Origin: Candidatus Omnitrophota bacterium
Lineage (GTDB): Bacteria > Omnitrophota > Gorgyraeia > Gygaellales > Profunditerraquicolaceae
Direction: 5' to 3'
DNA: 64,000 nucleotides
NCBI GenBank assembly: GCA_041649115.1
Contig: JBAZNT010000005.1
Location: 12,737-76,736 of the forward strand
The notes under the pieces are model-generated. The model searched no databases and was not told the origin of the DNA. It saw only the letters and a list, made by a program, of their open reading frames with translations. Below are positions 1,628 to 59,791 of this stretch, one piece after another (within the stretch, counting starts at the first letter, position 1; each line of letters opens with the position of its first letter). A program made the translations under genes and the position numbers.

Positions 1628-3748
1628 ATGAGTGGGTTTGATATTTTATGGTTGGCGCCGATAGGTTCTATCCTGGCGCTTTCGTTTGCTTTTTATTTAG
1701 CTCTTTACATACTAAAGAGTAGCGAAGGAAACGAGAAGATGCGCGAGATAGCTGAGGCGGTAAGGATTGGCGCCAGGGCGTATCTGAAGAGGCAGTACCT
1801 GGGCGTTTCCCTGTTCTTCGCGGTAGTTTTCGTTATTCTCTTGGTTCTGGCGTTTAAAAACTATCTCGTAATTTTTGTGCCTTTTGCATTTTTGACCGGC
1901 GGGTTTTTTTCGGCCCTCGCCGGATTCATCGGGATGACAATTGCTACCCGGGCATCCAGCCGCACTGCCGCAGCAGCCAGCAAGAGCCTAAATTCAGGAT
2001 TACGCATAGCGTTTTCAAGCGGCGCGGTAATGGGATTAAGCGTAGTAGGCCTGGGGCTTTTGGATCTATCTATCTGGTATTATTTTCTCAATTGGTATTA
2101 TTCAATCCATCCCATTCCTATCGGCGGCGATAAGATAGCAGCTATTACTTCCACGATGTTGTGTTTCGGTATGGGTGCCAGCTCCCAGGCATTATTTGCC
2201 AGGGTAGGAGGAGGTATCTTTACCAAGGCCGCTGACGTAGGGGCTGATTTGGTAGGCAAGGTTGAGGCCGGAATCCCGGAAGACGACCCGCGCAACCCCG
2301 CGGTTATCGCGGATAATGTCGGAGATAATGTCGGAGACGTTGCCGGCATGGGCGCCGACCTCTACGAATCTTACGTCGGCTCAATTGTCGCGACCTCGGC
2401 GTTGGGCGTTGCGGCAGGGTTAGGATTGGCCGGCGTTACCGTGCCAATGGTTATGGCGGCGGTGGGAGTTATTTCTTCAATCATCGGGACGTTCTTCGTA
2501 AAAAGCAAGGAACAGGCTACCCAGAACGCGTTGCTTTTTGCCTTAAGGAAAGGAATTTTTGTCAGTTCTATATTAGTGGCGATAGTTTCCTATTTTCTGA
2601 TTAAGGCTGTATTAGGCATTGAACATATCGGTGTTTATTGGTCGGTGCTTGCCGGGCTTCTGGCAGGAGTTTTAATAGGTTTGAGCACGGAATATTTTAC
2701 CTCCAGCCATTTTAAGCCTACGCGTTTTATTTCAGAGCAGTCATTGACAGGACCTGCTACCGTTATTATCGGGGGGATGGCTGTAGGGATGATGTCAACT
2801 GCCGTGCCGGTAATAGTGGTGGGTTTAGCAATATTAGCCAGTTATTTCCTGGCAGGCGGCGCAGCGAATCCGGACGCCGGACTTTACGGCGTTGCCATTT
2901 CGGCCGTAGGCATGCTTTCTACATTAGGCATAACCCTGGCGACCGATGCCTATGGACCGGTAGCGGATAATGCCGGCGGGAACGCCCAGATGGCCGAGCT
3001 CGACCCCGAAGTCAGGAAAAGGACCGATGCCCTGGATGCATTAGGAAATACTACCGCTGCTACCGGAAAGGGGTTTGCTATCGGTTCGGCTGCCTTGACA
3101 GCCTTGGCGCTTATCGCGGCATACAAAGACCAGATATTGCTTATTTCCAAGGAGCGCGGTTTAAATATAGATATGGGGCTGGAGCTTATGGACCCCAGGG
3201 TTCTGGTAGGGGTTTTTATAGGAGGCATGCTGCCGTTTTTGTTTTGTTCAATGACCATGCGTGCCGTCGGAAGAGCGGCGGGAAAAATTGTAGTAGAGGT
3301 ACGCAGGCAGTTCAAGGAGATAATCGGCCTTATGGAGCATAAGGCGAAGCCGGATTATGCCCGTTGCGTGCACATTGCTACTGCCGCAGCGCAAAAGGAA
3401 ATGGTGCTGCCAGCGCTTATGGCGATTATTGCGCCGCTTCTGGTAGGTATCCTGGCAGGCGTTAAAGCCGAAGCGGGACTTTTAGCAGGAGCGACAGTCA
3501 GCGGTTTTGTACTGGCAATCATGATGGCTAATTCCGGAGGTGCCTGGGATAACGCCAAGAAGTATATTGAAGAAGGGCACTACGGAGGCAAAGGGTCTGC
3601 TGCCCACAAGGCCGGAGTGGTCGGAGATACTGTCGGTGACCCCTTTAAGGATACCTCAGGCCCAAGCCTTAATATCCTGATTAAGCTAATGTCCATGGTA
3701 TCCATTGTTTTTGCTGCTTTCATCATATCTAATTCCCTCCTAAAATAG
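1628..3748 (+). CDS. hppA: Membrane-bound proton/sodium-translocating pyrophosphatase
   Basis: 706 aa and polytopic. Signature motifs are [41 protein letters not shown] and [22 protein letters not shown]. Confidence 0.95.
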
Positions 3749-3823
3749 GGACGGCTCTGGAAGTGAACTAAAGGTGTCCCCGAGGGGGGACACCTTTGCT
3801 TTGACTTGAGAACCGTCCCTATT
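3744..3823. repeat. Nested-hairpin repeat (GGGACGGYTCT outer, AAAGGTGTCCCC inner) overlapping the hppA stop; likely also a terminator
   Basis: The outer inverted repeat is aatagggacggctct (3744-3758) with gagaaccgtccctatt (3808-3823). The inner 12-bp stem is aaaggtgtcccc/ggggacaccttt (3770-3797). A T-tract (ttttttctatttttt) follows. Confidence 0.8.
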
Positions 3824-3839
3824 TTTTCTATTTTTTATA

Positions 3840-3867
3840 TTGGCTAGCTCCCCAGCAGTGGTATAAT
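3840..3867 (+). promoter_or_regulatory. Putative promoter of the ECF sigma operon
   Basis: TTGGCT-16 nt-TATAAT with a TG extended -10 (gTGgTATAAT). The -10 ends only 9 nt before ATG 3877. Confidence 0.45.
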
Positions 3868-3876
3868 AAAAGGGCA

Positions 3877-4491
3877 ATGGAGGATCTGCATTTTGTGCAG
3901 AGATGCGTCAAAGGGGACGCTCTGGCTTGGGATGAATTCATCTCTAGGTATTCCCGCTTAATATACAACTATATCCACAGTATCCTCAGATTGCACGGTA
4001 TCAACCACCCCGCACAAGACAGCGTCAGCGATCTCTTCCAGGAAATATTTCTTTCCCTCCTTAAAGATGATTTTAGAAAACTGAGAACCTTCAAGGCCAA
4101 GAACGGATGCAGCCTGGCCAGTTGGCTGCGGCAGGTAACCGTCAACCATACCATTGATTATTTGCGTAAGACCAGGGGCAGCGTGTCTTTGGAGGAAGAG
4201 GATTCCGAAGGCACGGCCCTTAAGGATAGGCTTGTAGATGGTGCTCCAACGCCGCAACATGAGTCTGTGCGGCAGGATAAACTGGCGCATTTAGAAGATT
4301 GTATCTCGCGCCTGGAAATAGATGATAGATATTTTTTGGAACTGCATCTTAACCGCGGTTTTAGTCTGGAGGAACTCAAAGAAATCCTAAAAATAGGCCG
4401 GGGGGCGGTAGATATGCGTAAATTGCGCATTATCGAAAGGTTACGAGATTGCTTTAGAAAAAAAGGTTTTGCGATGCCTCGGAAAGCATAA
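3877..4491 (+). CDS. ECF-type (sigma-24/sigma-70 family) RNA polymerase sigma factor
   Basis: 204 aa. Region-2-like: FISRYSRLIYNYIHSIL...DLFQEIFLSLLKD. Region-4 HTH: FSLEELKEILKIGRGAVDMRKLRIIERLRD. Confidence 0.9.
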   Translation: MEDLHFVQRCVKGDALAWDEFISRYSRLIYNYIHSILRLHGINHPAQDSVSDLFQEIFLSLLKDDFRKLRTFKAKNGCSLASWLRQVTVNHTIDYLRKTRGSVSLEEEDSEGTALKDRLVDGAPTPQHESVRQDKLAHLEDCISRLEIDDRYFLELHLNRGFSLEELKEILKIGRGAVDMRKLRIIERLRDCFRKKGFAMPRKA

Positions 4492-4550
4492 TAAAAAATG
4501 TTAGATTCTATGAGTTTTTACGTCTATTATGTCGGGAGGATACTAATAAA

Positions 4551-5261
4551 ATGCCGGAGAGTCTAGAAGATTTAATCAAGTCGGTTTATCGCGGTTGGAA
4601 GGCAGGGCGGTCCGGGGAACTTCGAGACCATCCTTGCGAGGAAGAGTTGGTTTGTTTAGCCGAAGGCAGGCTTTCTCCAAAAGACGCCAGGGCAGTGAAA
4701 TCGCACCTGGCAGAATGCGATGAATGCGGGAGCAGGTTCAGCGCCTATGTTAAACTACGATTTTTGCCTGAAGGGGTATTGGAGGTGCCTTTGGCTTTGA
4801 GGGAAAAGTTAAAGGGGCTTTTGACTCAGAAGCCGGGTAATCCGGTACTGGAAATATTTTTACGTTTTAAAGAAAAGGTGCTGGAGTTGATCAGCACTAC
4901 CGGGAACGTCTTGGTAGGACAGGAGTTGGTACCCGCGCCTTTATTGCGGGCGCGCAGGATACGGGATTTCAAAGACGGCATTGATATCTTTAATGATTTT
5001 GAAAAAATCAGGGTAGAGGTTAAGATTGAGAAGAAGGGCGGCAATAATTTTAATCTGGAGGTGTCAGTAAAAGAAAAACAAACCCAGAGATGGCTTCGCG
5101 ATATCAGGATAACGCTGGAAAGGGAAGGGTTTGAATTGGAATCCTATATGTCGGATAAAGGCGGCGTTACTTTTGAGAACATCGCTCTCGGGGAATACCG
5201 TATTGAAATAAGCGACGCGCAGAGCGTTCTTGCTTGCGTTGTCTTGGATGTAAGGGCGTAG
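4551..5261 (+). CDS. Putative zf-HC2 anti-sigma factor, apparently soluble
   Basis: Carries the H-x3-C-x2-C motif HLAECDEC in its N-terminal ~60 aa. It lies immediately downstream of the ECF sigma gene. I see no clear TM helix. The C-terminus is beta-rich (GGVTFENIALGEYRIEISD). Confidence 0.65.
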   Translation: MPESLEDLIKSVYRGWKAGRSGELRDHPCEEELVCLAEGRLSPKDARAVKSHLAECDECGSRFSAYVKLRFLPEGVLEVPLALREKLKGLLTQKPGNPVLEIFLRFKEKVLELISTTGNVLVGQELVPAPLLRARRIRDFKDGIDIFNDFEKIRVEVKIEKKGGNNFNLEVSVKEKQTQRWLRDIRITLEREGFELESYMSDKGGVTFENIALGEYRIEISDAQSVLACVVLDVRA

Positions 5262-5263
5262 AT

Positions 5264-7432
5264 ATGTCATCCGAACGCAATGCATTGGTGCTGGATATAT
5301 TGAAGCAGAAACGCAGCCTGGCGATGGGTGTTTTTGAGCGCAAGGGTGTTTCTGCGACCATCAGGCACTACAGTAGTTCCGGAATTTCATTCCGCGAGAT
5401 AGGTAATCTCTGTAAAGAGCAAACCCTCCTGTTGAATCGCAACTCCAGGAAACTCGAATATGACCTGCGGGCAACGGAAGACCTTAAAAAAATCGGCCAG
5501 CTTCTTTGGGATAATCTTTTGAGCGTAGCGGTAAAAGACCGCTTAAAAAGCACTATTATCAAAGACCTGATTTTATCTTTAGACGAAGGCTTGATAAATA
5601 TCCCGTGGGAGCTGCTTTATGACGGCAAGGATTTCCTATGCCTTAAGTTTAACATCGGGAGGCTTATCCGCACCAGCCAGGAGCAACGCCCGCTACAATA
5701 CCGCAGTCCAGCCGGGCCTCTTAGGATGCTTATTCTCGCCAATCCTACCGGCGACCTGAAATCCGCTTATAACGAAGGTCTTTACATCAAGAATCAGTTT
5801 GACCGTCGCCCAAGCGAGGTGAGAATTGATTTTAAATCTACCGCTATCGATACCCTCTATCTAAAAAAGAATATGCGGGATTACGATATTGTGCATTTTG
5901 CCGGGCATTGCGAATATGATGCTGTCCGTCCCGGGGAGAGCGGATGGGTATTGGCTAATGGCCGTTTCACCGCAGTGGATATTATGGCATTGTCGGAAAG
6001 CTCTTCTTTGCCAGCCCTGGTATTTTCGAATGCCTGCTATTCCGCCCCCCGGATATCCGATGAGATAACTCCGGATTACCACGAGAGGACCTATAGCATT
6101 GCCTCGGCATTTTTATTTTCCGGCACCACGCATTACATCGGGGCGATGCGGCGGATAGAAGACGAAACCAGCCGTTTATTTGCGCGCGAGTTTTATGCAC
6201 AATTAATTAAGGGCGAGACGGTCGGAGGTTGCCTGCGCCAGGCGCGCCTGAAGATCATCAAGGAGTACGGCAGAGGGGCGGCGGGATGGATGAGCTATAT
6301 TCTTTACGGAGATCCGAACCTTGTCTTATTTAGACCGCATTCAAAACCCGAGGCGCCGATTTTGGTGTTAAAAAAGAGGGTTTATCATTACCGCAAGAGG
6401 CTATTGCGGCTGGCGATAGCAACAGGAGCAATCCTGGCAGCGCTTCTCGTCTGGGCGCTTGCGCCGAGCATCAACCCCAATACTTATCTTTTATTTTCCA
6501 GAACCCAGAGGCTTTATGCGCGGGGCGATAACGAAGCGACTGTCAAGTCGGCTTTGCGGATTATCGCCAGGGAACCCGCGTTTTTGGGGGCCTATCCTTT
6601 GCTGGCAGATGCCTACCAGAGGCTGGGGATGGGCGAGAAGGCCTTAAAAATTTATTTTGATTATGCGCTTTATGCGCAGAAGAGGCACGACGCTAAACAC
6701 GTGGCATCAAGCTATATCAGTATCGGATGGTGTTATCAGCAGTCCGGCGATTACGAAAGGGCCGTTGATTTCTATAACCGCGCACTCGCCTTAAGCAGGG
6801 CAAAACGCGATAAGTTCAACGAGGCGGTAGCGCTTAGAAGACTGGCGGTATGGCACATTGATAAGGAGGAATATGACCGCGCCCTTGAGTTGTTAACTAA
6901 GAGCTCGGAGATTAACCGCGAAAGACGTCGAATCAGCGCTCACCGTTATAACCTGGGGTGCGATTATTTTGATATCGGCCTTGTCTTCGCCAATAAGGAC
7001 GATTTTAAAGCTGCCAGGGATTTCTATCGTAAGAGCCAGAGAATATTTGAAAAGATGAGATTCGGCAGGGAACTCAGCGACTGCTATTTTAATCTTGGAG
7101 AAATCTATCTTTTTGATAAGGAGTACCATAAGGCAAAGGAATATTATCTTAAAGGTCTTAGGATAGACGAGTCTCATCAGAATAAGCCGAGTATAGCCGC
7201 AGATTACAATATGTTAGGAGAGCTTTGTTTTGAAATGGGGGATGTCAAAGAAGCGGAGGAGTTTTTTAATAAAGGTGTCTTGCTTTCCGCTCAGATAAAC
7301 GCGCAGATGGAGCTGGCCGAGTCTTACGAGAACCTCGGGATTTTATATAAAGCTAAAAAGGATATGGCAAAATCACGGGAGTTTTCCAAGAAGGCCCATG
7401 AGATCTACCGCCGCATGGGTTTCCCCGATTAG
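5264..7432 (+). CDS. CHAT (caspase-like) protease domain - TM helix - TPR-repeat protein
   Basis: The His/Cys dyad context is YDIVHFAGHCEYD ... LPALVFSNACYSA. The TM segment is LLRLAIATGAILAALLVWALAP. About 8 TPR-like repeats follow (AYQRLGMGEKALKIYF..., YNRALALS..., YYLKGLRI..., FFNKGVLL...). ATG 5264 lies 2 nt after the upstream stop; the track's TTG 5234 start is less likely. Confidence 0.85.
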   Translation: MSSERNALVLDILKQKRSLAMGVFERKGVSATIRHYSSSGISFREIGNLCKEQTLLLNRNSRKLEYDLRATEDLKKIGQLLWDNLLSVAVKDRLKSTIIKDLILSLDEGLINIPWELLYDGKDFLCLKFNIGRLIRTSQEQRPLQYRSPAGPLRMLILANPTGDLKSAYNEGLYIKNQFDRRPSEVRIDFKSTAIDTLYLKKNMRDYDIVHFAGHCEYDAVRPGESGWVLANGRFTAVDIMALSESSSLPALVFSNACYSAPRISDEITPDYHERTYSIASAFLFSGTTHYIGAMRRIEDETSRLFAREFYAQLIKGETVGGCLRQARLKIIKEYGRGAAGWMSYILYGDPNLVLFRPHSKPEAPILVLKKRVYHYRKRLLRLAIATGAILAALLVWALAPSINPNTYLLFSRTQRLYARGDNEATVKSALRIIAREPAFLGAYPLLADAYQRLGMGEKALKIYFDYALYAQKRHDAKHVASSYISIGWCYQQSGDYERAVDFYNRALALSRAKRDKFNEAVALRRLAVWHIDKEEYDRALELLTKSSEINRERRRISAHRYNLGCDYFDIGLVFANKDDFKAARDFYRKSQRIFEKMRFGRELSDCYFNLGEIYLFDKEYHKAKEYYLKGLRIDESHQNKPSIAADYNMLGELCFEMGDVKEAEEFFNKGVLLSAQINAQMELAESYENLGILYKAKKDMAKSREFSKKAHEIYRRMGFPD

Positions 7433-7611: not shown

Positions 7612-8958
7612 ATGAATAATACTTTTTATTTGAACATTTCAACTGCCGAGAACCTGGGGATAGGTCTCTTCAAGTATCAGCTTACCTCGCCGGAGCGGTT
7701 TATCATTACGAATTCTGCCCTGGCACACATGCTGGGTTATCTTTCCAGGGTTGATTTTAAGCGGATTACCCTGGATGACCTTTTTTTGCGTCCATACGAG
7801 AAGGAAAAGTTCATTACGCTTCTTAAAGAGCAAGGGAAGGTAAAGTTCTTTGAGACGCTTTTTAAATCAAAAGACGGCAAACCGGTCTGGGTTGCTATTA
7901 CGGCCTCGCGCGTACTTATCAATAACAAGAGGGACTACGCCGAGGGTATTATCGAGAACATCAGCGAACATAAAGAGACAGAAGAGAAACTGGAACTTGA
8001 AAGGGACTTTATGCAGGGGCTTCTGGATAGCATGCCGGATGCCATCTATTTTAAGGACCGTCAGAATAAGATTATCAAGGTAAATAGATTCTATGCCGAA
8101 GGCTCAAAACTTAAATACGAGGATATTATCGGAAAGACCGATTTCGATTTCTTCCCGCACGAGCAGGCCCGGAAGATGTTCGAGGATGACAATTACGTCC
8201 TGAGCGGAAAGTCTATTATCGGCAAAATAGAGCGCACCCTTCTTCCCAACGGCACCTGGAATCAGGTTATCACTACCAAGATACCCATGTATGACCGCGG
8301 CGGCAATATCATCGGAACCATGGGTATCACCCGCGATATGACGGCTTACGCCAACCTCGAGAGGGAGCGCCTGGAGATGTTGATTAATACCGTCATGGTT
8401 TTAGGCAAGGCCATGGAGATGCGCGACCCGTACACTTTCAGCCACAACCGTAAGGTTGCCGATATCGCCGAGAAGATTGGCAAGGCCTTGAATTGGGATG
8501 AGAACAGGCTCCTGGGCATGAAGCTTGCCGGTGAGCTGCATGACCTGGGAAAGATTAGCATCCCGCTGGATATACTCAACAAGCCGGGGAAGCTCAGCGA
8601 CCTGGAATTTAAGCTTATCCAGGAGCACGTAGTAAAATGTTATGACCTCTTTAAAGATATCAAATTTCCATTTTCATTGGCAGATATTGTTTATCAACAC
8701 CACGAGCGCTTAGACGGTACTGGCTATCCCCGCGGCCTTAAAGGCCAAGACATAAACGAGGAAGCGCGCGTGTTGGCAGTAAGCGATGTCTTAGAAGCAA
8801 TGACCTCGCATCGTCCCTACCGCGAAGCATTAGGGCTGAACAAGGCTATGGATGAGCTCCAAAATGGCAAAGGGAATAAATACGACCCGCAGATAGTAGA
8901 AATAGTGGTTCATCTTGTATCTGATAGCGGCAATAAGATTTTCTGGTCCACGAATTAA
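7612..8958 (+). CDS. PAS sensor - HD-GYP domain c-di-GMP phosphodiesterase
   Basis: Two PAS-like segments are followed by an HD-GYP domain: HSHNRKVA..., ELHDLGKISIP, HHERLDGTGYPRGL. Confidence 0.9.
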   Translation: MNNTFYLNISTAENLGIGLFKYQLTSPERFIITNSALAHMLGYLSRVDFKRITLDDLFLRPYEKEKFITLLKEQGKVKFFETLFKSKDGKPVWVAITASRVLINNKRDYAEGIIENISEHKETEEKLELERDFMQGLLDSMPDAIYFKDRQNKIIKVNRFYAEGSKLKYEDIIGKTDFDFFPHEQARKMFEDDNYVLSGKSIIGKIERTLLPNGTWNQVITTKIPMYDRGGNIIGTMGITRDMTAYANLERERLEMLINTVMVLGKAMEMRDPYTFSHNRKVADIAEKIGKALNWDENRLLGMKLAGELHDLGKISIPLDILNKPGKLSDLEFKLIQEHVVKCYDLFKDIKFPFSLADIVYQHHERLDGTGYPRGLKGQDINEEARVLAVSDVLEAMTSHRPYREALGLNKAMDELQNGKGNKYDPQIVEIVVHLVSDSGNKIFWSTN

Positions 8959-9044
8959 CCCTTCCGTAACATCAATACCAAATAATTAGAAATTCAGGTT
9001 AGATTCATTTTCTCGTTTCGTCTATTATGCCAGGAGGCGAGAAG

Positions 9045-10583
9045 ATGAGAAAAATATTCTGGTTTTGTGTGTTTTTGTTATGCAGCGCAGATTTTTTGCA
9101 GGCAGAACTTGTCTGGAGCGATCTAAGTTGCGGTAATACCGGTATCACCAGTATTTTAATTGATTCCGTCGACCCGGGATTGTTATATGCCGGTTCGAAA
9201 GCCGGGGTTTTAAAGAGCCTGGATGGGGGCAATAGCTGGCATAATGTCCTGTCATTAAGGGGAGGGGATGCCAGAGTTAATCTCCTGTCTTTTGACCCCT
9301 TCAATAATAAGATTGTTTACGCCGCTACCTCCCGCGGATTGTACAGCAGCAGTAACAGGGGCGGGAGTTGGCTGAGGATTTTTAGGCGCAGTAACTACCT
9401 GGAGACGGATTGTACTGCGGTTGCCGTTGTGCCTGGCATTATTTATCTGGGGACGCGGGGAGGCCTTTTTGCAAGCCGGGATAACGGACGCAGTTGGAGC
9501 AGGGAAAGCGGCCGGGTAGGCGGCGAAGATGTCAGGGCAGTAGCTTACTCGGCGATTGATAAAGTTGTTTATGCTGCCTCCTGCGGCGGCATATACCGTG
9601 CAACTCCTGGAGGGAATAGTTGGGAGAGGATCTTTGTAGCTCATGCCCGGGAAGATAAAGAGTATAATGAAGAGCCAGACGAAAAAGAGGAGACAGATAG
9701 CGGGACAGAAATAAACTACCTGGCTGTTGCGCCAGCAAGCGGAGATATTTACATTGCCGCAGGAACGGGGATTTATCAATCCAGCGACAGGGGTAAGAAC
9801 TGGGAAGCCCTTACCGATTACGGGTTGCTTAACCGTAACGTCAAGTTCATTTATGCGGCATGGAATTCCAGGGTTTATGCCGTTACAAGCTCCGGTATAT
9901 TCCTTTATTCCGGCGAACGCTGGCAGGAGTTGTCTTTTGCCCTGGCCGCAGGTGAGCCTTGCGCCGTCAATTACAGTAAAGATGGCAACCTTTATGCTGC
10001 CTGCCAGATGGGGCTTTTCAGGGCGTCTATAAAAGAGAGGGTTTATGATAATAATGGCAATGACGTCGGTCTCCGCTGTCAAGGCGAGCCGTCCATCAAT
10101 GAAGTGCAGCAGGCGGCAATTAAATACGCGGAGGTGGAGCCTGAAAAGATTATGCGCTGGAGAAAACAAGCAACTAAGAAGGCTTTTTTGCCGCAGTTAA
10201 GCTTAAGCGTGGATAGCGATACCGGCGACCTCTGGCACTGGGAGGCGGGTTCTTCCGCTAAAAGCGAAGACGATATTTTACGTAAGGGGCGCAGCAGCGT
10301 AGATTGGAGCGTTACCTGTAAATGGGATTTAGCGGAATTAATCTGGAATTCCGACCAAACCTCCATTGACGTACGCTCCAGATTAATGGTAGAGTTGCGT
10401 AATGACATCCTCGATGAGGTTACCAGGGTTTATTTTGAGAGGATGCGGGTAAAAACGGAATTAGAGGGGTTATCCATTGAGGAGAGTAATAAGAGGCAGG
10501 TAAAGGAGTTAAGGGTTGCTGAACTTACCGCCTTGCTTGATGCTATGACCGGAAGCTACTTTTCCAATTCCTTTAAAAAATAA
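9045..10583 (+). CDS. Secreted BNR/Asp-box repeat beta-propeller protein with an uncharacterised C-terminal domain
   Basis: Signal peptide MRKIFWFCVFLLCSADFLQA. Asp-box repeats: SLDGGNSW, SSNRGGSW, SRDNGRSW, TPGGNSW, SSDRGKNW. Shine-Dalgarno AGGAGG sits 7 nt upstream of ATG 9045; the track's ATG 9027 would overlap that Shine-Dalgarno. Confidence 0.65.
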   Translation: MRKIFWFCVFLLCSADFLQAELVWSDLSCGNTGITSILIDSVDPGLLYAGSKAGVLKSLDGGNSWHNVLSLRGGDARVNLLSFDPFNNKIVYAATSRGLYSSSNRGGSWLRIFRRSNYLETDCTAVAVVPGIIYLGTRGGLFASRDNGRSWSRESGRVGGEDVRAVAYSAIDKVVYAASCGGIYRATPGGNSWERIFVAHAREDKEYNEEPDEKEETDSGTEINYLAVAPASGDIYIAAGTGIYQSSDRGKNWEALTDYGLLNRNVKFIYAAWNSRVYAVTSSGIFLYSGERWQELSFALAAGEPCAVNYSKDGNLYAACQMGLFRASIKERVYDNNGNDVGLRCQGEPSINEVQQAAIKYAEVEPEKIMRWRKQATKKAFLPQLSLSVDSDTGDLWHWEAGSSAKSEDDILRKGRSSVDWSVTCKWDLAELIWNSDQTSIDVRSRLMVELRNDILDEVTRVYFERMRVKTELEGLSIEESNKRQVKELRVAELTALLDAMTGSYFSNSFKK

Positions 10584-12943: not shown

Positions 12944-15415
12944 ATGGAAGAAGGACGGTTAAATATAAAGGAAAAGTATCTTTTGGCAGAGTTTGCCTTT
13001 AGCTTTATCCTATTGTGCGCTGCCGTTTTTCTTTTTGGAGAAGCGCTGGGAGTCCTGAGGAATTATTTTATCCTGGCTCTGGCAGGGGGGTTGTATTTTA
13101 GCTGGGTTCAGCGCGACAAAAAATCCCCGGCGCTCTATGCCGCCATTAATATCGCGTTCCTGGCTGTTTTTATCTGGGTTTTTTACGAGGTTTTTAACTC
13201 CTCGCTATTCTATAAAGACGTCATCCTTCTTTTTGTTAAGGCCGGATTTATCCTGTCGGCTCTTCTTTCGCTGGGAGCGGTTAGCGGGTTTTTGGTGTAC
13301 GTAGAGGTGTTGAGCCTTGCGCTTGTAATGTGTTCCCCGATTTTTATCAATAAGTATAACCCCCAGCACTATCTCTTATTGGCTTTTTGTTTCTTTTCCT
13401 GGGCAGCCCTTTTAAAATTGCGATTTGAAAGGCCTTTTGCATTGGTATCCGCAAGGACATCCGGGCGCAACTATCCCAGGATTTTTGATTTGGCCTTGTT
13501 GCTGTTAATTGCTTTGTTCGCCTGGGCGTTTTTCTACGCAATACCGCTTAGGGGCATTAGGGACAAGGGGTTTTTTATCCATGAGACTGGGGTGTATGGG
13601 GTGCCCGAGGCGCCTTCAGAACAAAAATACTATGCATTGCAGGAGAAGCTGCAGGATGGAATCCTGGAGGCCATACCTGATCTTAAATCCAAAGGCGAGA
13701 TATTAGGGGATCTCAGTTCTCTTATCAAAGAGTCTGCGGACGTAATGGAAATCAAGAGGGCCCGCGATGGGCTGGTGGATAAATTAAGGCGGCCCGGGCC
13801 GGGACTGGAGAAAGGCAAGGATGACAATCTTCTTCTGCTTCTTGATCAATACCTCGACCAGAAGATAAAGCGTAATTTAAAGATAAGCAAAGAAAAGGTT
13901 ATTGAAAGCCTCAAGGGCAACCCATTCAGCATCAGGGATAGGTTTGCGGCTCTCACGCGGCTGAATAAGATGCAATATGATGATTCAGTAGAGAAGGTGG
14001 GGTCTTGGGGCCGGGAACTGAAGATAATCATCGCTAAATCGTCGGTCAGCCCGGGAGCCAAAAGAGAGATTAAAGGTGCCTTAGCGCAGTTTGAGAAGTG
14101 GAAATATTACCAGCTTTATTGCCGTCAATTAGACGCCCTTAAGCAAACTGCCGGTTCGCTCGATAAGGACTCCCGCGAAAAATCAGAGGAACTTATTTCT
14201 GCGCTTGAAAATATATATTCACCCTTGGATTTAAACACGGCCGGCGGAAAAATCAAGATCTTAAGATACAGCGGAGGTAGGGAAATGGATGCCGTAGCAA
14301 ACCAGGCTGATAACGTACTTGATGCTGCTTCCCGCATGGTTGCTGCGGCAGGCAACATGGCCAAAGAAGACAGGGGCGAGCCTGGCCAGAGACAGAAGCC
14401 TGTTGAGACCGGAGGGGGCGGCGATAACGGGGAATACAAGAGATTATCTTCAGTAGAAATACTTCCGGAATACTGCCGGATAGCGCTGGGGGGGACCAAG
14501 GAGCTGCTTGCCATGGGAATCTACGAAGACGGCTCGCACCAAGATGTTACTGCCGAGGCGTTATGGTCAAGCTCAGACGGGGATATTCTTTCCGTTGCGC
14601 AAGGGGTGGTTAGCGCTGCGGGGATCGGCAAGGGCAGGGTTTACGCAGAGATAAATGGCGTAAAAAGCAGGGCAGCCATGGTAGTGGTGGAGGAGCCGCA
14701 ACTGGTGGCGGTTAACATTTTCCCGCCCGGCCTGTCGATACCTGTTAACGGCAGCGCCGCCTTAAAAGCCGAGGGCGTTTTTAGTAACGGCGGGCATAAA
14801 GACATCACCTCTTCGGTTGATTGGAAAGTTGAGGATGAACGTTTAATCAGGGTGTCCAGAGGTAAAATTTACGGGTTGAGGATAGGAAGCACTTCGGTGT
14901 ATGCCGAGTACGCTGCGCTTAGGAGTTCCGGCGTTGAGGTAAAGGTGACCATGACTTTATTTTGGGCAGCCGTATTGCTATTTAAACTTGTCCTGGCCTC
15001 GGCAGTTCTATTAGGAATAGTATTTGCCGTTTTTTATGCCTTGACCGAAGAAAGGAAGAAAAAGATTAAGTCCTGGATGGCTCTTGACCAGCGCCGTTTT
15101 ATTGTTGAGGTTTACAGAAATACCCATGGCGTCTTAGGGGTTTTTGGACCGCGGCCGGAAAAAACGATACCGCCCTTGTCCTACGCTACTGCGGTAGAAG
15201 AACGTTATTCACTAACAAATAATGTTTATACCAGCCTGACACATTTGTTCGAAGAGGCAAAATACAGTAATCATGCCATCAGTGATGATGATGCCAGCGA
15301 AGCGCTGGTAGTTTACAATAGTTTTATCCGCATGGTTCTCGGCCGTTACGGCAAGGGCAGGATTTTTCTGGGCCGCTGCCTGCTTTTATTATTAAAGAAA
15401 CCGCTCTATATCTAA
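12944..15415 (+). CDS. Polytopic membrane protein with 2 Big_2 (bacterial Ig-like) domains and a DUF4129-like C-terminus; takes the place of TgpA-type transglutaminase
   Basis: The N-terminal ~200 aa are multi-TM. A long helical, charged region follows. Two Big_2-like repeats are present (LWSSSDGDILSV...GRVYAEINGVKS; VDWKVEDERLIRV...GSTSVYAEYAALRS). After a TM helix comes the tail ...YTSLTHLFEEAKYSNHAISDDDASEA, resembling DUF4129. I could not find a Cys-His-Asp transglutaminase core. Confidence 0.6.
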   Translation: MEEGRLNIKEKYLLAEFAFSFILLCAAVFLFGEALGVLRNYFILALAGGLYFSWVQRDKKSPALYAAINIAFLAVFIWVFYEVFNSSLFYKDVILLFVKAGFILSALLSLGAVSGFLVYVEVLSLALVMCSPIFINKYNPQHYLLLAFCFFSWAALLKLRFERPFALVSARTSGRNYPRIFDLALLLLIALFAWAFFYAIPLRGIRDKGFFIHETGVYGVPEAPSEQKYYALQEKLQDGILEAIPDLKSKGEILGDLSSLIKESADVMEIKRARDGLVDKLRRPGPGLEKGKDDNLLLLLDQYLDQKIKRNLKISKEKVIESLKGNPFSIRDRFAALTRLNKMQYDDSVEKVGSWGRELKIIIAKSSVSPGAKREIKGALAQFEKWKYYQLYCRQLDALKQTAGSLDKDSREKSEELISALENIYSPLDLNTAGGKIKILRYSGGREMDAVANQADNVLDAASRMVAAAGNMAKEDRGEPGQRQKPVETGGGGDNGEYKRLSSVEILPEYCRIALGGTKELLAMGIYEDGSHQDVTAEALWSSSDGDILSVAQGVVSAAGIGKGRVYAEINGVKSRAAMVVVEEPQLVAVNIFPPGLSIPVNGSAALKAEGVFSNGGHKDITSSVDWKVEDERLIRVSRGKIYGLRIGSTSVYAEYAALRSSGVEVKVTMTLFWAAVLLFKLVLASAVLLGIVFAVFYALTEERKKKIKSWMALDQRRFIVEVYRNTHGVLGVFGPRPEKTIPPLSYATAVEERYSLTNNVYTSLTHLFEEAKYSNHAISDDDASEALVVYNSFIRMVLGRYGKGRIFLGRCLLLLLKKPLYI

Positions 15416-27326: not shown

Positions 27327-28946
27327 ATGCATAATAAAGAACGCTATATTTTATTTTTTGTTCTCGTCGCGGCTTTCCTGTTGAGGGTGCCCCATCTTGA
27401 TTTCCCCGCCATCGGTTACCATAACATGAAAGAGAATGAATATATAAGCATGGCAAAAAATATGGCGGCCAGCGGAGATTTTGTATCCAGGGATGTATAT
27501 TTCTATAATGCCTTCAGCGGCAAGAAGGATTTCGGGCTTTACCCCCAGATACCATTTGTAGCCTATCAGGTCCTCCTCGGATACAGGCTTTTCGGGGATA
27601 ATCTCTGGTTCCCGCGCCTGCTAAACATCATCCTGATGCTTTTGTCGGTCGTCGTAATTTACCGGCTGGCAGTCTTTTTCCTGAAAGAAAGAATTTACGC
27701 TTTAATGGTCGCTGTCCTGGTGGGCATACTGCCGTTGGGGGTATATTGTTCCAGGAACCTTCAGCCCGAGAGCGGCGCATTTTTATTTATGAGCTTAGGC
27801 AATCTCTTTCTCATCAGATTTATGGACGGTTTTAAACGCAGGCACTTAGTCGCAGCGTCCTGCTGTGTTTTAATGACCGCCGCTTATAAGATTTCTTTTT
27901 TGACGGGGTTCGCCCCGCTGGCATTGATTTTTCCTTATCCCAAATACCTGCGTGAAAAAAGAGCAAGGTACGCAGTAAGGGAAGCGCTTATTCTGGCCTT
28001 GCCCCTTTTGTTATTGCTCGGATATTTGCTCCTGATATCCCAGCTGTCGTTTTCCGCTTCCTGGAAAGGGAGGGTGGAGCCCTGGAGGGCATTTTCGGCG
28101 TCATACTGGCGTAGCTATGCTTCTATTCTTTGGCATTATGCGAAAAACGAAAATTTCACCTCTCTCTACATCTTATTGTTTGCGGCCGGGACCTTAAGCC
28201 TCTGGATAGGCTATAAAAAAGACCGCAGTTTATTTGCCGGGTATCTGCGGGCATGGTTTTTGGTGCTGATTGCGTATTTTGCGTTTTTTTCAGACTACCT
28301 CAACCAGCACAGCTATTATCAGTTGCCGTTTTTGGGTTTTGTCTCTTTTGTGATTGTATATTTTATGCGGCAGCTAAGCCGTTACATCGTAAAATTCCTG
28401 AGGCGCCCTTTCAAGGAGCACTATATAGGGGCAGCCGTTTTCGCGGCGTTGCTTTTGATTTCGCGCCCGGAGTTGAAAGCCAATATCGACAGTCATTTTG
28501 ACGTAATCTATGCCGGTACCGACGAGGTAGGCAGGATATTAGGCAGCTTAACCTCCAAAGACGACCGCCTATTTATTTATACCTTTGCCCAGGGGTACGC
28601 TCCCTGCGTATACGCCGAGCGCAGATGCGGCTGGTGCGGTTCGCTTGAGGAACTAAAAGAGAACGAGAGAAAATTCAATGTGCAATACCTTATCGTCTAC
28701 CCCTATTATTATATTTATAGCATCCCCACGGACATCTGGCATTACATTTCCGGCAGCTACCATATCAACTTAGTAGGATTCAGCCTTGTTAAGAAGACTA
28801 TCATCCCGGTAATTCTTGTTCTTAAAAAAGGAGGGGTTTTTGACGAGAAGGAATTCTACAGGAAGAACAGCGCCATTGAATTGGATAAGGTTTATCGCAC
28901 CCCTTCCGGGGCAGTGCCGTTTTATCTGATGAGGGATGCTAATTGA
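27327..28946 (+). CDS. Polytopic ArnT/PMT-like (GT39/GT83-type) lipid-carrier-dependent glycosyltransferase
   Basis: 539 aa with more than 10 TM helices. The early loop GYHNMKENEYISMAKNM resembles the first periplasmic loop of this family. The C-terminus is a soluble domain. Confidence 0.55.
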   Translation: MHNKERYILFFVLVAAFLLRVPHLDFPAIGYHNMKENEYISMAKNMAASGDFVSRDVYFYNAFSGKKDFGLYPQIPFVAYQVLLGYRLFGDNLWFPRLLNIILMLLSVVVIYRLAVFFLKERIYALMVAVLVGILPLGVYCSRNLQPESGAFLFMSLGNLFLIRFMDGFKRRHLVAASCCVLMTAAYKISFLTGFAPLALIFPYPKYLREKRARYAVREALILALPLLLLLGYLLLISQLSFSASWKGRVEPWRAFSASYWRSYASILWHYAKNENFTSLYILLFAAGTLSLWIGYKKDRSLFAGYLRAWFLVLIAYFAFFSDYLNQHSYYQLPFLGFVSFVIVYFMRQLSRYIVKFLRRPFKEHYIGAAVFAALLLISRPELKANIDSHFDVIYAGTDEVGRILGSLTSKDDRLFIYTFAQGYAPCVYAERRCGWCGSLEELKENERKFNVQYLIVYPYYYIYSIPTDIWHYISGSYHINLVGFSLVKKTIIPVILVLKKGGVFDEKEFYRKNSAIELDKVYRTPSGAVPFYLMRDAN

Positions 28947-34984: not shown

Positions 34985-36526
34985 ATGCGTAAAGATGTCC
35001 GGTTATCTGCTGAAGTCCAGCTGGCCTGGAAGGTAATGACCTGCAGGGGATTAAGGACGACTTATGATAAGAACAGCCCATGCCAGTGGTTCAACCTTCA
35101 TTACGGTCCTTATCCCGCCTATACGACCGGGGAGCTGCCGATTGACATAGTGAAGGAAGGCGGATCGCGTTCTATAAAAGGCAAATGCGCCGGAAAGCGC
35201 TATAACATCCCGGAATTGATGAGCGGCTGCCGCAAAGCTCCCATAATGAGCATAGGGATAAATCCGAACCTGACCGCATATCAGATCAGTGTTAACGGGG
35301 CAACGTGGTGTTATCCCTATTTCGACGACATAGAAAAATACGCCCATTATTTCCGTTATCGCACCGTGAACCAGGAACGTTTTGACGTCGCTTTCGTCAA
35401 GAAATACGTTGTGCTCGGCACGGCAGTCAAAACCGCCGCTAAAGGTTATATTGTGAGCATCTCGCGCGGTACGGATAACATTACCATAAACCTTAAATAT
35501 GCTAAATCGGGGAGCCGCACTTTGCGCGTTCCCATGAGTTATAATGTCTTCTACGATGCCAACGAAGCAAACAGGAATTTTGCAAAAGGCGATGTCCTTG
35601 CCGGGCTCGTAGAATTGCCTGATGACGCCGCGGCAGAGGTAATCCAGGAGCCGGTAGGCTATTACAGGCAATTCAATGCTTTCCTGGAGAGGTTTAAACA
35701 GCTCGCCGGGAAACCGCTGGCGGATTCTAAGTTCCAGATTGGGGAAGATGCCTGTCAGGCGGATATGGTGCCGTGCGCAAGCCCGGGATGGAATGCTTAT
35801 TTCCCGGATAGCGTATGTGATGATATCGTAGAAGAATGCGTCAAGAAGAGGCTGTATCTTGCCCAGCAGCTGATTCAGACCCGTCCGGCAATAATTATTT
35901 TTGCGGGAAACGCCGCGCTGAATATGTTCCTGCGGGTTTTTAACGGCAAGGTGGTTCCTGCCATAGACTCTTCCGAAGATACGCTGCAATTGCTTAAGAA
36001 AGCCCTGAAAACCCCTTATTGGCTTAGTGTCGGCAAAGGGAGGCATTCTTTTAAATCCAGGCTTGTCTTCTCGCCGCATTTCTCTTACGGGGATAATTTT
36101 CTCGCCGGGTGCAGGATGGCCGCTAAACAGTGGGAGGAATTCAGCGCTAAATTCCCGGCTGATGTAAAGCTGGTTGAATCCCGCAAGAGAGAGGTTTTTG
36201 GAGGGGTTATCCTGGTGCTTGATCCCTCTAAAAAGCCCTGGGCGGATACCTTAACTGCCGGTGCAGTGAAGATGCTGACCCCCATTTATATGGACCCCGT
36301 TGACCTGATAGCGAGGATAATCCTGCAGGAATATGAAGCGGGAAGGATCAGGCTGGATGAGCGGACCGGACACCTTGTAAGGACCGCCGGCCCGTGTCGG
36401 TTCTGCGGAAACGAACTCTTCCGTTTTAAGGAAGCATGCCCATACGGGAAACTGGGCATTGTTTCCAAAGCAAAAGATTCAGCGCGGGAAATTGCCAGGG
36501 CCGCAAAATTGGCAGTGCGCGGATGA
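34985..36526 (+). CDS. Hypothetical 513-aa protein; possible divergent uracil-DNA-glycosylase-superfamily fold
   Basis: GGAGG Shine-Dalgarno lies 7 nt upstream. APIMSIGINPNL resembles the GINPG motif of MUG/TDG-type UDGs. IIIFAGNAA...RLVFSPHFSYG resembles the late HPS/NPS motif. Many Cys are present, including the C-terminal CRFCGN...CPYGK. The function call is weak. Confidence 0.5.
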   Translation: MRKDVRLSAEVQLAWKVMTCRGLRTTYDKNSPCQWFNLHYGPYPAYTTGELPIDIVKEGGSRSIKGKCAGKRYNIPELMSGCRKAPIMSIGINPNLTAYQISVNGATWCYPYFDDIEKYAHYFRYRTVNQERFDVAFVKKYVVLGTAVKTAAKGYIVSISRGTDNITINLKYAKSGSRTLRVPMSYNVFYDANEANRNFAKGDVLAGLVELPDDAAAEVIQEPVGYYRQFNAFLERFKQLAGKPLADSKFQIGEDACQADMVPCASPGWNAYFPDSVCDDIVEECVKKRLYLAQQLIQTRPAIIIFAGNAALNMFLRVFNGKVVPAIDSSEDTLQLLKKALKTPYWLSVGKGRHSFKSRLVFSPHFSYGDNFLAGCRMAAKQWEEFSAKFPADVKLVESRKREVFGGVILVLDPSKKPWADTLTAGAVKMLTPIYMDPVDLIARIILQEYEAGRIRLDERTGHLVRTAGPCRFCGNELFRFKEACPYGKLGIVSKAKDSAREIARAAKLAVRG

Positions 36527-58467: not shown

Positions 58468-59784
58468 ATGAAGATATCCATTATCGGTTCGGGATATGTA
58501 GGATTGGTGAGCGGGGCGTGTTTTGCGGAATTAGGCAATAGCGTAGTTTGCGCCGATAATAACGCCCGCAAGATCTCCCAGCTTCAGAAGGGCGTCATTC
58601 CTATATATGAGCCGGGGCTGGAAGAGCTTGTCGTAAAGAACGCTGCCAAGAGAAGGCTGAGATTTACCTCAAGCATCAAAGAGGCCGTGAAGGCTTCGGA
58701 GGTAATTTTCATCGCAGTAGGCACTCCTTCTTTAGACAACGGCGAGGCGGACCTCACCGGGATAGAGAACGTGGCCCGCAATATCGCATTATATATGGAC
58801 GGCTACCGCCTGATTGTGGAAAAATCTACTGTCCCGGTTGAGACCGGCTATTGGGTGAAACAGACTATTTCTACCTATATAAAGCGCAAGGAGAAATTTG
58901 ACGTTGCCTCAAATCCCGAATTCCTGAAGGAGGGCGTAGCCATAAATGATTTTATGCGCCCTGACCGTATTGTTATCGGAGTAGAGTCTAAAAAGGCCGA
59001 GGCCATCCTGACAGGCCTCTACAGGCCTCTTAATGCCCCTTTGGTAATTACGGATATCAGATCCGCAGAATTAATCAAGCACGCTTCAAATTCTTTCCTG
59101 GCAACCAAGATTTCCTTTATCAATGCCGTTTCGCGTATCTGCGATAAGGTCGGCGCAGATATTAAAGAGGTGGCTTTGGGGGTAGGATTGGACAAGAGGA
59201 TCGGCGGGGATTTTTTAAATGCCGGCCTTGGCTACGGAGGCTCATGTTTTCCAAAAGACCTCGACGCCTTCATTGAGATATCAGCGAAGCTAGGGCATGA
59301 TTTCCACATTCTTAAGTCGGTACGCGACACCAACGAGGAACAGCTTAGCGCTTTCCTTGCGAAGATCAAGGATGAGCTCTGGATAATTAAGGATAAGAAT
59401 ATTGCGGTATTGGGTTTGTCTTTTAAGCCTAATACCGATGACCTCCGCAACGCCCCTTCAATCGGGATCATCAAGGCATTGAAATCGGACGGGGCAAGGA
59501 TGAGGGTCTATGATCCCTCTGCCATGAAGAATGCAAAGGAATTGTTCGTTGATGGGCGCGGCATCACTTTTTGCAAGGACCCTTATCAGGCCTGCCGTCA
59601 GGCGGACTGCCTTTTGATTATTACCGAATGGGATGAATTCAAGGAGTTGGATTTCGCAAGGATAAGAAAACTGATGCGCCGCCGCCTTATCATTGACGGC
59701 CGCAATATCTATGAGCCGAAACATATGAAGAAGTTAGGCTTTAGCTATATCGGTGTCGGCAGGAAGAGCACGCCCAACAGGTAG
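58468..59784 (+). CDS. ugd: UDP-glucose 6-dehydrogenase
   Basis: MKISIIGSGYVGLVSG, with catalytic Cys in GLGYGGSCFPKDL, plus GLSFKPNTDDLRNAP. Confidence 0.93.
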   Translation: MKISIIGSGYVGLVSGACFAELGNSVVCADNNARKISQLQKGVIPIYEPGLEELVVKNAAKRRLRFTSSIKEAVKASEVIFIAVGTPSLDNGEADLTGIENVARNIALYMDGYRLIVEKSTVPVETGYWVKQTISTYIKRKEKFDVASNPEFLKEGVAINDFMRPDRIVIGVESKKAEAILTGLYRPLNAPLVITDIRSAELIKHASNSFLATKISFINAVSRICDKVGADIKEVALGVGLDKRIGGDFLNAGLGYGGSCFPKDLDAFIEISAKLGHDFHILKSVRDTNEEQLSAFLAKIKDELWIIKDKNIAVLGLSFKPNTDDLRNAPSIGIIKALKSDGARMRVYDPSAMKNAKELFVDGRGITFCKDPYQACRQADCLLIITEWDEFKELDFARIRKLMRRRLIIDGRNIYEPKHMKKLGFSYIGVGRKSTPNR

Positions 59785-59791
59785 CTTAAAT

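Follow-up and report, generated by a model that had tools for sequence, protein, structure and literature searches.

A module of three adjacent genes in a 64-kb stretch of DNA from an uncultured Candidatus Omnitrophota bacterium, known from a metagenome-assembled genome (MAG), appears on balance to encode a self-contained three-protein transmembrane system that controls a sigma factor of the extracytoplasmic function (ECF) type. We refer to the whole stretch, positions 1 to 64,000, as the window. The module comprises the sigma factor, a soluble zinc-finger anti-sigma factor and a membrane protein in which a caspase-like CHAT domain is joined through a single transmembrane (TM) helix to an array of tetratricopeptide repeats (TPRs). 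In the reading that we favour, the anti-sigma factor is predicted to bind the sigma factor, and its putative cleavage by the cytoplasmic CHAT domain would be the controlling step. ECF sigma factors are a major bacterial signal-transduction route, and their known transmembrane activation relies on a membrane-spanning anti-sigma factor and a cascade of general proteases. If our reading is true, the membrane-spanning part is instead a dedicated caspase-like protease and the anti-sigma factor is its soluble substrate, which would be a simpler and mechanistically different arrangement.

More tentatively, and with slightly less than even confidence, we propose that the module represents a class of one-pass "protease receptors". 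In such a receptor, a swappable outer sensor would be connected by a TM helix to a cytoplasmic CHAT domain that cuts a soluble anti-sigma factor after an invariant Arg, so that the ECF sigma factor is released in one step without intramembrane proteolysis. This class would be the main ECF-type switch of Omnitrophota, would also occur in Nitrospinota, and would be a housekeeping counterpart of Csx29 and CalpL.

A conserved gene triad and an invariant linker arginine

The three genes are closely linked across a wide range of loci. Among CHAT-anchored loci, obtained by a metagenome scan and comprising the best 80 of 360 relatives, both upstream genes were carried by every locus with room for both (53/53), and the anti-sigma gene was present in 66 of the 67 loci with room for it. 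Locus L024, which was considered as an exception to this linkage, was rejected as such, an anti-sigma C-terminal fragment lying directly upstream of its CHAT gene. A second set of loci, anchored on the anti-sigma factor, was fetched by exact-protein look-up of homologues. The order sigma, anti-sigma, CHAT-TM-TPR was kept in all of the Omnitrophota loci in this set (anti-sigma identity 40–78%), and among those fetched with homologues of 40–46% identity the downstream flanks differed. The anti-sigma and CHAT genes are separated by 2–14 nt or overlap; in the window the CHAT start codon, ATG 5264, sits 2 nt past the anti-sigma stop. An upstream TTG at 5234 was rejected as the CHAT start, as the orthologue N-termini align to ATG 5264. 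A contig scan with the single anti-sigma sequence recovered three true relatives together with generic zf-HC2 proteins that have no CHAT neighbours. Conservation of the triad as a neighbourhood had been named as a check in an earlier note made from the letters of the window, and its outcome in both sets of loci is a strong argument that the sigma, anti-sigma and CHAT genes form a functional unit.

The same note had called the three open reading frames (ORFs) and their domains, namely an ECF sigma factor, a zf-HC2 protein, and a CHAT protein with one TM helix and eight TPRs. The reading frames stand as called, all on the plus strand (Table 1), and the domain calls were borne out by Pfam and NCBIfam searches, hydropathy and a structure model. 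Residues 17–192 of the sigma factor matched the NCBIfam sigma70-ECF model TIGR02937 at 85.4 bits (cut-off 42.9), and the protein matched Pfam Sigma70_r2 above the cut-off (1.7e-8) and Sigma70_r4 below it (0.0016; 18.4 versus a cut-off of 24.1). Its closest solved relatives are SigW (3.6e-6) and SigH, and orthologues are found in every triad locus at 47–88% identity. The TIGR02937 match, along with the anti-sigma gene in the cognate position and the ECF-type promoters in the locus, places the protein in the ECF (group 4) branch of the sigma-70 family.

The anti-sigma protein is 100% identical to the NCBI MAG protein WC559_02650. A homology search returned 96 homologues, mostly of ~234 aa, and the 94 that were aligned share a common ~234-aa layout. 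No TM helix was found in the protein, its highest 19-residue Kyte-Doolittle mean being 1.12. It carries the motif HLAECDEC at aa 52–59. Four residues, H27, H52, C56 and C59, are predicted to be its zinc ligands; none of them varies in the 94 orthologues, and the last three stay invariant in 44 relatives that share 27% identity on average. Distant members have Cys in place of His as the first ligand, which gives a CHCC site as in DdvA and not HHCC. The HxxxCxxC motif with its upstream His, set in an N-terminal helical domain, is characteristic of class I ZAS (zf-HC2) anti-sigma factors. When the family profile was compared with solved structures, the best matches were the anti-sigma domain (ASD) of DdvA, itself a weak match (0.0089), and RsiW (0.01). 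In the AlphaFold2 model, helices at aa 30–71 were predicted with a local confidence score (pLDDT) of 65–80 and a beta-sandwich at aa 143–234 with a pLDDT of ~90. A fold search with this model found nothing at E<1e-3, and since the matches were generic Ig-like and prealbumin-like sandwiches, the C-terminal domain cannot be named.

The segment between these two domains is the candidate docking and cleavage site for the CHAT protein. Here the family form of the sequence is TTGxVLVGQELVPAPxLRSRxIxDF, and this linker is the most conserved block of the anti-sigma factor (mean column conservation 0.94 over aa 121–135). Its pLDDT in the AlphaFold model is 34–42, so that it is predicted to be unstructured on its own. 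Disorder combined with the highest conservation in the protein would be expected of a docking or cleavage motif. An exhaustive profile search with the anti-sigma family, clustered at 50% identity, yielded 124 clusters at E<=1e-30 and 597 at E<=1e-10, nearly all of 220–245 aa, and an Arg equivalent to R133 was present in 95% of 123 full-length family representatives. Among the most diverged members, 44 sequences with a mean identity of 27%, only five columns are invariant, namely three zinc ligands, one Phe and Arg133. Arg is the residue after which several clan-CD proteases cut, including separase, metacaspases and gingipain R, which makes R133 a reasonable candidate for the P1 position. We therefore guess that a cut, if made, would most likely fall after R133 (...PAPxLR/S, the slash marking the bond), P1 = Arg being the conjectural part of this assignment. 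For separase, an ExxR specificity is cited in a study of the Myxococcus protein DdvA (PMC11506125). In the CHAT protein, conservation is lowest at aa 361–400 (0.55), and no comparably conserved unstructured segment was seen next to its membrane helix.

The CHAT domain itself (PF12770) occupies aa 76–350 and scored 107.4 bits against a cut-off of 24. A homology search returned 767 homologues, and the 120 that were listed are all of ~730 aa with 54–99% identity. Compared with solved structures, the CHAT-domain profile gave marginal matches only, to 8tl0 (0.059) and to DdvA (8rot; 0.62). The sequence VHFAGHCEYD begins at aa 210 and VFSNACYSA at aa 253, which places the catalytic residues at H215 and C258. 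Both are invariant in 121/121 CHAT orthologues, and conservation of this dyad was a further check that the earlier note had put forward. The distant CHAT partners of loci L102, L104, L106 and L107 keep the dyad too, and it is complete in every distant partner that includes this region. These results suggest that an active CHAT enzyme is under selection, its activity being predicted from the invariant dyad. The residue that follows the catalytic His varies; most orthologues have GHC, and some have GHS, GHG or GHA (L003, L095, L058).

For the CHAT domain to act on a soluble anti-sigma factor, the two would have to meet in one compartment, and the predicted topology of the CHAT protein is consistent with this. 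No N-terminal signal sequence was found in the protein, and in the 15 residues on either side of its TM helix the mean number of Lys plus Arg was 5.56 on the N-terminal side versus 2.19 on the C-terminal side, the N-terminal side being the richer in 121/121 orthologues. As the N-terminal side is Lys/Arg-rich and signal-less, the positive-inside rule places the CHAT module (aa 1 to ~372) in the cytoplasm and the TPR array, modelled as 16 helices or 8 TPRs at pLDDT >90, outside. The CHAT domain and the soluble anti-sigma factor are thus predicted to share the cytoplasm.

Distant relatives of the anti-sigma factor extend this picture. Nine look-ups of such relatives gave 10 loci, and a CHAT gene lay immediately downstream, often overlapping, in 10/10. 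The encoded CHAT partners all match the Omnitrophota CHAT-module profile (1e-42 to 1e-139), and they differ in what is attached to it. L104 and L109 encode CHAT-TM-TPR proteins, L106 has a CsgG-like domain after CHAT-TM, L107 has two discoidin domains, L108 (Nitrospinota) has a trypsin-like domain, and L110 is CHAT-TM only (412 aa). L102 and L103 combine a nucleotide cyclase with CHAT, and L101 and L105 are contig-end fragments. Since the outer domain varies while the sigma factor, the anti-sigma family and the CHAT module stay, we take these three to be the core of the system, and the outer domain appears to behave like an interchangeable sensor. The suggestion of the earlier note that the TPR array acts as a sensor gains support from this swapping and from the topology. 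A homology search with a profile of the distant relatives returned 3 proteins, and the taxonomy of the distant members rests on few named clusters. Far from being an oddity of one locus, the module belongs to a large family that spans nearly the whole phylum Omnitrophota. In the cyclase branch (L102:3022-4767 and L103:2880-4583) an N-terminal adenylate/guanylate-cyclase domain replaces the TM-anchored outer domain, which points to a form of the switch that is cytoplasmic and linked to nucleotides. Both contigs end inside the gene.

Promoters, predicted circuit and genomic surroundings

Upstream of the sigma gene is a housekeeping-type promoter, TTGGCT-16-TGgTATAAT, with 10/12 matches. This site alone is no better than chance, 8 such sites being found in the region versus 6.4 expected, and it was accepted for its conservation across orthologous upstream regions. 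Of 52 distinct orthologous loci, 49 have TATAAT with at most one mismatch upstream of the sigma gene, and in 37 of these it is TG-extended. Spacers of 9 nt (32 loci) or 6 nt (9 loci) separate the -10 element from the start codon, and in the window it is 9 nt from the ATG. A Shine-Dalgarno-like motif precedes 5/59 sigma genes versus 56/59 anti-sigma genes, and none was found before the sigma gene of the window. A -10 element 9 nt from the ATG together with the lack of a Shine-Dalgarno sequence indicates a leaderless or almost leaderless sigma mRNA. Expression of the sigma gene is probably constitutive.

A promoter of another type, GTTAGA-N15-CGTCTA, lies in the spacer between the sigma and anti-sigma genes, and a second copy lies upstream of a gene for an exported BNR/sortilin-Vps10-like beta-propeller (Table 1). 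These two are the only exact matches in the 64 kb, where none was expected. Upstream of the anti-sigma gene the motif is exact in 45/52 loci and has at most one mismatch per hexamer in 48/52; its spacer is always 15 nt, and its -10 element ends ~24 nt ahead of the start codon. The copy upstream of the BNR gene is kept in most of 38 loci, both where the CHAT and BNR genes are 79 nt apart and where they are 3590 nt apart. Across all fetched loci there were 110 exact matches, 67 before anti-sigma genes and 31 before BNR genes, and a CGTCTA-type -10 element is present between the sigma and anti-sigma genes in several distant loci. Exact matches were also seen on the minus strand in three related loci, L039, L063 and L093, before ORFs resembling IS200/RAYT-like tyrosine transposases (MPRGPRILL...CYHIINRGNQ). 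The earlier note had placed all three genes behind the single site at 3840-3867 and had proposed autoregulation there. That site is real and conserved, but it is of housekeeping type; a second, ECF-type promoter stands within the operon at 4500-4526, and the sigma-type promoters of the locus are this one and the copy at 8998-9024.

The BNR protein matches Pfam Sortilin-Vps10 (5e-10) as well as PSII_BNR and BNR_6, and its N-terminus is signal-like (MRKIFWFCVFLLCSADFLQA). Its gene lies downstream of the triad in 31/47 loci, with a Shine-Dalgarno sequence and start codon that can be aligned across loci; in the window the ORF opens at 9027 and the start codon was corrected accordingly (Table 1). 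From this promoter and context, the protein is likely a regulon output of the sigma factor, and it is possibly a partner of the outward-facing TPR array.

These observations can be assembled into a predicted circuit. The sigma gene would be transcribed constitutively from its housekeeping extended -10 promoter as a leaderless mRNA, and the soluble zinc-finger anti-sigma factor, by its predicted binding, would hold the product inactive. The single-pass membrane protein would present its 8-TPR array to the outside and its caspase-like CHAT domain to the cytoplasm, where a signal or partner at the array could activate it. Caspase-type proteases are commonly activated by oligomerisation or conformational change. 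The activated CHAT domain would then cut the anti-sigma factor in its unstructured linker, most likely after Arg133, and the freed sigma factor would transcribe from GTTAGA-N15-CGTCTA both the exported BNR gene and the anti-sigma and CHAT genes. New anti-sigma factor and CHAT protein made in this way would reset the switch by negative feedback.

Should this circuit hold, the logic by which a CHAT protease frees a sigma factor, discovered recently in CRISPR-associated systems, would also be that of an ordinary housekeeping sensory device. The candidate cleavage motif, promoter and output gene are all testable in E. coli, for a phylum without a cultured model, and the swappable outer domains would be an attractive scaffold for engineered sensors.

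Table 1. Features of the module and its output gene, by position in the window
Feature	Position	Strand	Details
Housekeeping-type sigma promoter	3840-3867	+	-35 TTGGCT (3840-3845); extended -10 TGgTATAAT (3859-3867)
ECF (group 4) sigma factor	3877-4491	+	204 aa; TIGR02937, Pfam Sigma70_r2
ECF-type promoter GTTAGA-N15-CGTCTA	4500-4526	+	in sigma/anti-sigma spacer; predicted driver of anti-sigma and CHAT genes
Soluble anti-sigma factor	4551-5261	+	236 aa; N-terminal zinc-finger domain, linker motif, C-terminal beta-sandwich
Predicted zinc ligands H27, H52, C56, C59	4629-4727	+	H...HxxxCxxC of anti-sigma factor; from conservation
Linker motif TTGnVLVGQELVPAPLLRARRIRDF	4899-4970	+	aa 117-140, R133 = 4947-4949; candidate CHAT docking/cleavage site
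CHAT-TM-TPR protein	5264-7432	+	722 aa; Pfam CHAT 1.2e-30, TPR_12 5e-33
CHAT catalytic dyad	5906-6037	+	His215 (5906-5908), Cys258 (6035-6037); invariant in orthologues
Single TM helix of CHAT protein	6401-6472	+	aa ~380-403; Kyte-Doolittle mean 2.17
8-TPR array of CHAT protein	6476-7417	+	aa 405-718; structure model
Second GTTAGA-N15-CGTCTA copy	8998-9024	+	upstream of BNR gene
Exported BNR/sortilin-Vps10-like beta-propeller	9045-10583	+	512 aa from corrected start ATG 9045

The neighbours of the module in the window are housekeeping genes, encoding an H+-pyrophosphatase (H+-PPase), MoxR/DUF58, Pta-AckA, phosphoenolpyruvate carboxykinase (PEPCK), ClpB and HrcA-GrpE-DnaK-DnaJ. Between the CHAT and BNR genes, at 7612-8958, is a PAS-PAS-HD-GYP gene resembling cyclic di-GMP phosphodiesterases. 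It was found in 6/47 loci, those of the window and its close relatives only, and therefore stands outside the conserved module. After the H+-pyrophosphatase gene, at 3745-3830, a long compound hairpin is followed by a T-run; its arms contain GGGACGG/CCGTCCC and GGTGTCCCC/GGGGACACC. Many related loci have similar hairpins with GTCCC upstream of the sigma gene, and these may be a lineage-specific terminator or repeat element.

Some further features of the window lie away from the module. All of its ORFs with a family match are on the plus strand and the GC skew is positive in every 2-kb bin; so complete a strand bias over 64 kb is unusual. At 59753-62524 a 923-aa ORF resembling UDP-glucose/GDP-mannose dehydrogenases is interrupted by an intein, with matches to splicing and LAGLIDADG homing-endonuclease domains, and an intact 438-aa dehydrogenase paralogue lies directly upstream (58468-59784). 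Four long ORFs had no Pfam match at E<=1e-8, namely 12944-15415 (823 aa), 27327-28946 (539 aa), 34985-36526 (513 aa) and 56273-58444 (723 aa). The first of these follows the MoxR-DUF58 pair and has several hydrophobic segments.

Weighing the alternatives

Several of our observations weigh against control by CHAT cleavage of the anti-sigma factor. The zf-HC2 match of the anti-sigma factor is marginal in Pfam (22.3 bits versus a cut-off of 22.2), and the CHAT domain was modelled poorly (pLDDT 26–50), so that the completeness of its active site cannot be judged from the model. That the sigma factor reads GTTAGA-N15-CGTCTA is inferred from the position and conservation of the motif only. As the anti-sigma and CHAT genes stand behind this sigma-type promoter, the regulon could have the CHAT protein as an output and not as its input, and the invariant ZAS zinc site may leave room for redox control that needs no protease. 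For comparison, a three-helix element is missing from the CHAT domain of DdvA, for which no activity has been seen to date (PMC11506125), and Csx29 enzymes cut after Met or Leu (PMC10028731), and not after the Arg that we favour as P1.

The alternative that draws most on these points is that the CHAT-TM-TPR protein is an output of the sigma regulon, co-transcribed with the anti-sigma gene only for sharing its feedback promoter, and that the anti-sigma factor is inactivated in another way, for instance when its HHCC site is oxidised or loses zinc, as happens in RsrA and ChrR, or when general proteases of the cytoplasm degrade it. The ECF-type promoter directly upstream of the two genes and the invariant ZAS ligands are compatible with it, as are the weak NCBIfam matches of the anti-sigma factor to RsrA and ChrR, and genetic-context analyses have difficulty in telling regulators from targets (PMC7826278). 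It would, however, leave unexplained why the anti-sigma family is constantly paired with the same CHAT module in the 10 distant loci, why the conservation of an Arg in a disordered linker equals that of the zinc site, and why the genes abut so closely; moreover, the swapping of sensor-like outer domains among relatives is typical of inputs. We regard this explanation as unlikely, though one to be kept in mind. A partner switch without proteolysis, in which the CHAT protein tethers the linker and beta-sandwich at the membrane and a signal at the TPRs alters binding so that the sigma factor is freed uncut, could account for the linker as a pure docking motif, and DdvA CHAT catalytic mutants had no phenotype under the conditions tested (PMC11506125). 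The His/Cys dyad, however, is invariant in all 121 orthologues and retained in the distant partners, whereas pseudo-enzymes usually lose their catalytic residues, and we consider such a switch improbable.

The CHAT domain might also act elsewhere, on itself, on the sigma factor or on unrelated cytoplasmic proteins, the anti-sigma factor merely sharing a stress operon with it. For DdvA, autoproteolysis in trans has been put forward as a hypothesis (PMC11506125), and PCaspase cuts many substrates, a sigma factor among them (10.1101/2023.06.23.546230). The invariant, family-specific linker Arg, however, sits in the anti-sigma factor, and the juxtamembrane region of the CHAT protein (aa 361–400) showed no unstructured segment of comparable conservation; we give this possibility little credence. 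The known bacterial pairings of CHAT with sigma factors, Csx29, DdvA and SAVED-CHAT, are all linked to defence (PMC10028731, PMC11506125, 10.1101/2023.06.23.546230), and the module could by analogy be an anti-phage or abortive-infection system that resembles the CRISPR-associated CHAT systems but lacks a CRISPR partner. Against this, the matches of the three proteins in PADLOC-DB were to generic TPR models only, the H+-PPase gene lies upstream in 31/38 loci, the surroundings in the window are housekeeping genes only, and the module is widely conserved across Omnitrophota with uniform lengths and 50–60% identity, whereas defence islands are normally patchy. A role in defence therefore seems very improbable to us. 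Control of the ECF sigma factor through CHAT cleavage of the anti-sigma factor remains the reading that we carry into the comparison below.

Relation to known protease-controlled sigma switches

In regulated intramembrane proteolysis (RIP), as in the DegS/RseP-RseA-sigmaE and PrsW/RasP-RsiW-sigmaW systems, a transmembrane anti-sigma factor is cut sequentially by a site-1 and a site-2 protease whose genes lie outside the operon. The module would resemble RIP in converting an envelope signal into an ECF response through proteolysis of a ZAS/class I anti-sigma factor, and SigW and RsiW are among the closest solved sequence relatives of its sigma and anti-sigma factors. In contrast to RseA and RsiW, the anti-sigma factor described here is soluble, with no hydrophobic segment (maximum 19-residue Kyte-Doolittle mean as given above), and the membrane-spanning element is a cysteine protease encoded in the operon.

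The closest published precedent is DdvA of Myxococcus xanthus (PMC11506125), and not, as the earlier note had proposed, the Csx29-Csx30 pair. DdvA is one polypeptide of order ZASD-TM-TPR-CHAT with a periplasmic CHAT domain; it is proposed to cut itself, after which RseP is needed, and it has a CBASS/CRISPR island under its control and occurs in Myxococcota only (PMC11506125). The DdvS/DdvA pair and our module have in common an ECF sigma factor, a class I anti-sigma domain with a zinc finger, TPRs, a CHAT His/Cys dyad and one TM helix, as well as the idea that CHAT releases the sigma factor by cutting the anti-sigma factor. Unlike the fused transmembrane anti-sigma factor of DdvA, however, the functions are here divided between two genes, and the anti-sigma factor is soluble, without a TM helix, and has its own linker and beta-sandwich. 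The order is CHAT-TM-TPR, with CHAT predicted on the cytoplasmic side, so that one cut in the cytoplasm could be enough, without any intramembrane step. The module also lies among Omnitrophota housekeeping genes, and the CHAT sequences are barely related (E 0.62).

In the type III-E Craspase, Cas7-11/Csx29 (TPR-CHAT) cleaves Csx30, the inhibitor of CASP-sigma (PMC10028731). A TPR and CHAT protease and a soluble inhibitor of an ECF-like sigma factor are common to both systems, and the site-specific cut that Craspase makes in a linker is what we propose here. We found no tandem array and no Rfam match in the 64-kb window, and no Cas domain in the 46 of its ORFs that were scanned or in the flanks of related loci, in agreement with the CRISPR independence that the earlier note had claimed. 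In contrast to Craspase, there is no Cas7-11, CRISPR RNA (crRNA), Csx31 or CRISPR array here, and the activator would be an extracytoplasmic signal and not a target RNA. The domain order is reversed with respect to Csx29 (CHAT-TM-TPR), the protease is membrane-anchored, and the anti-sigma factor is a zf-HC2 protein with a beta-sandwich; no Csx30 chain was among its profile or fold matches. The module is thus not a type III-E Craspase, and its assembly appears to have been independent of that of Csx29/Csx30, as the domain order had suggested to the earlier note. Overall, the genomic predictions of that note hold, and its promoter assignment and its choice of closest analogue are the parts that we correct.

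Two further systems invite comparison. [quoted passage not shown] According to these parts, the co-encoded protease, soluble anti-sigma factor and ECF-like sigma factor are shared with the module, and cleavage of the anti-sigma factor is the signalling step there, as is proposed here. From the same material, CalpL differs in being a Lon-type serine protease, activated by cyclic tetra-adenylate through SAVED, cytosolic and CRISPR-linked. For ECF54 of Actinobacteria, control by a protease has been hypothesised from nearby CHAT, subtilase and carboxypeptidase genes, with no recognised anti-sigma factor (PMC8999054, PMC7826278). There, as here, an ECF sigma gene is conserved beside a gene with a CHAT domain; our module differs in having an anti-sigma factor and in belonging to another phylum.

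A full-text literature search returned no description of a zf-HC2 and CHAT combination or of the split architecture, its coverage being incomplete and absence from the literature thus unproven. The main text of the ECF reclassification paper does not mention CHAT, though an ECF group description elsewhere may list such context. As a protease-controlled ECF sigma switch, the module is of a known kind. Compared with the systems above, it is notable for an architecture that is split and inverted, for sensors that are modular and for conservation across nearly the whole phylum.

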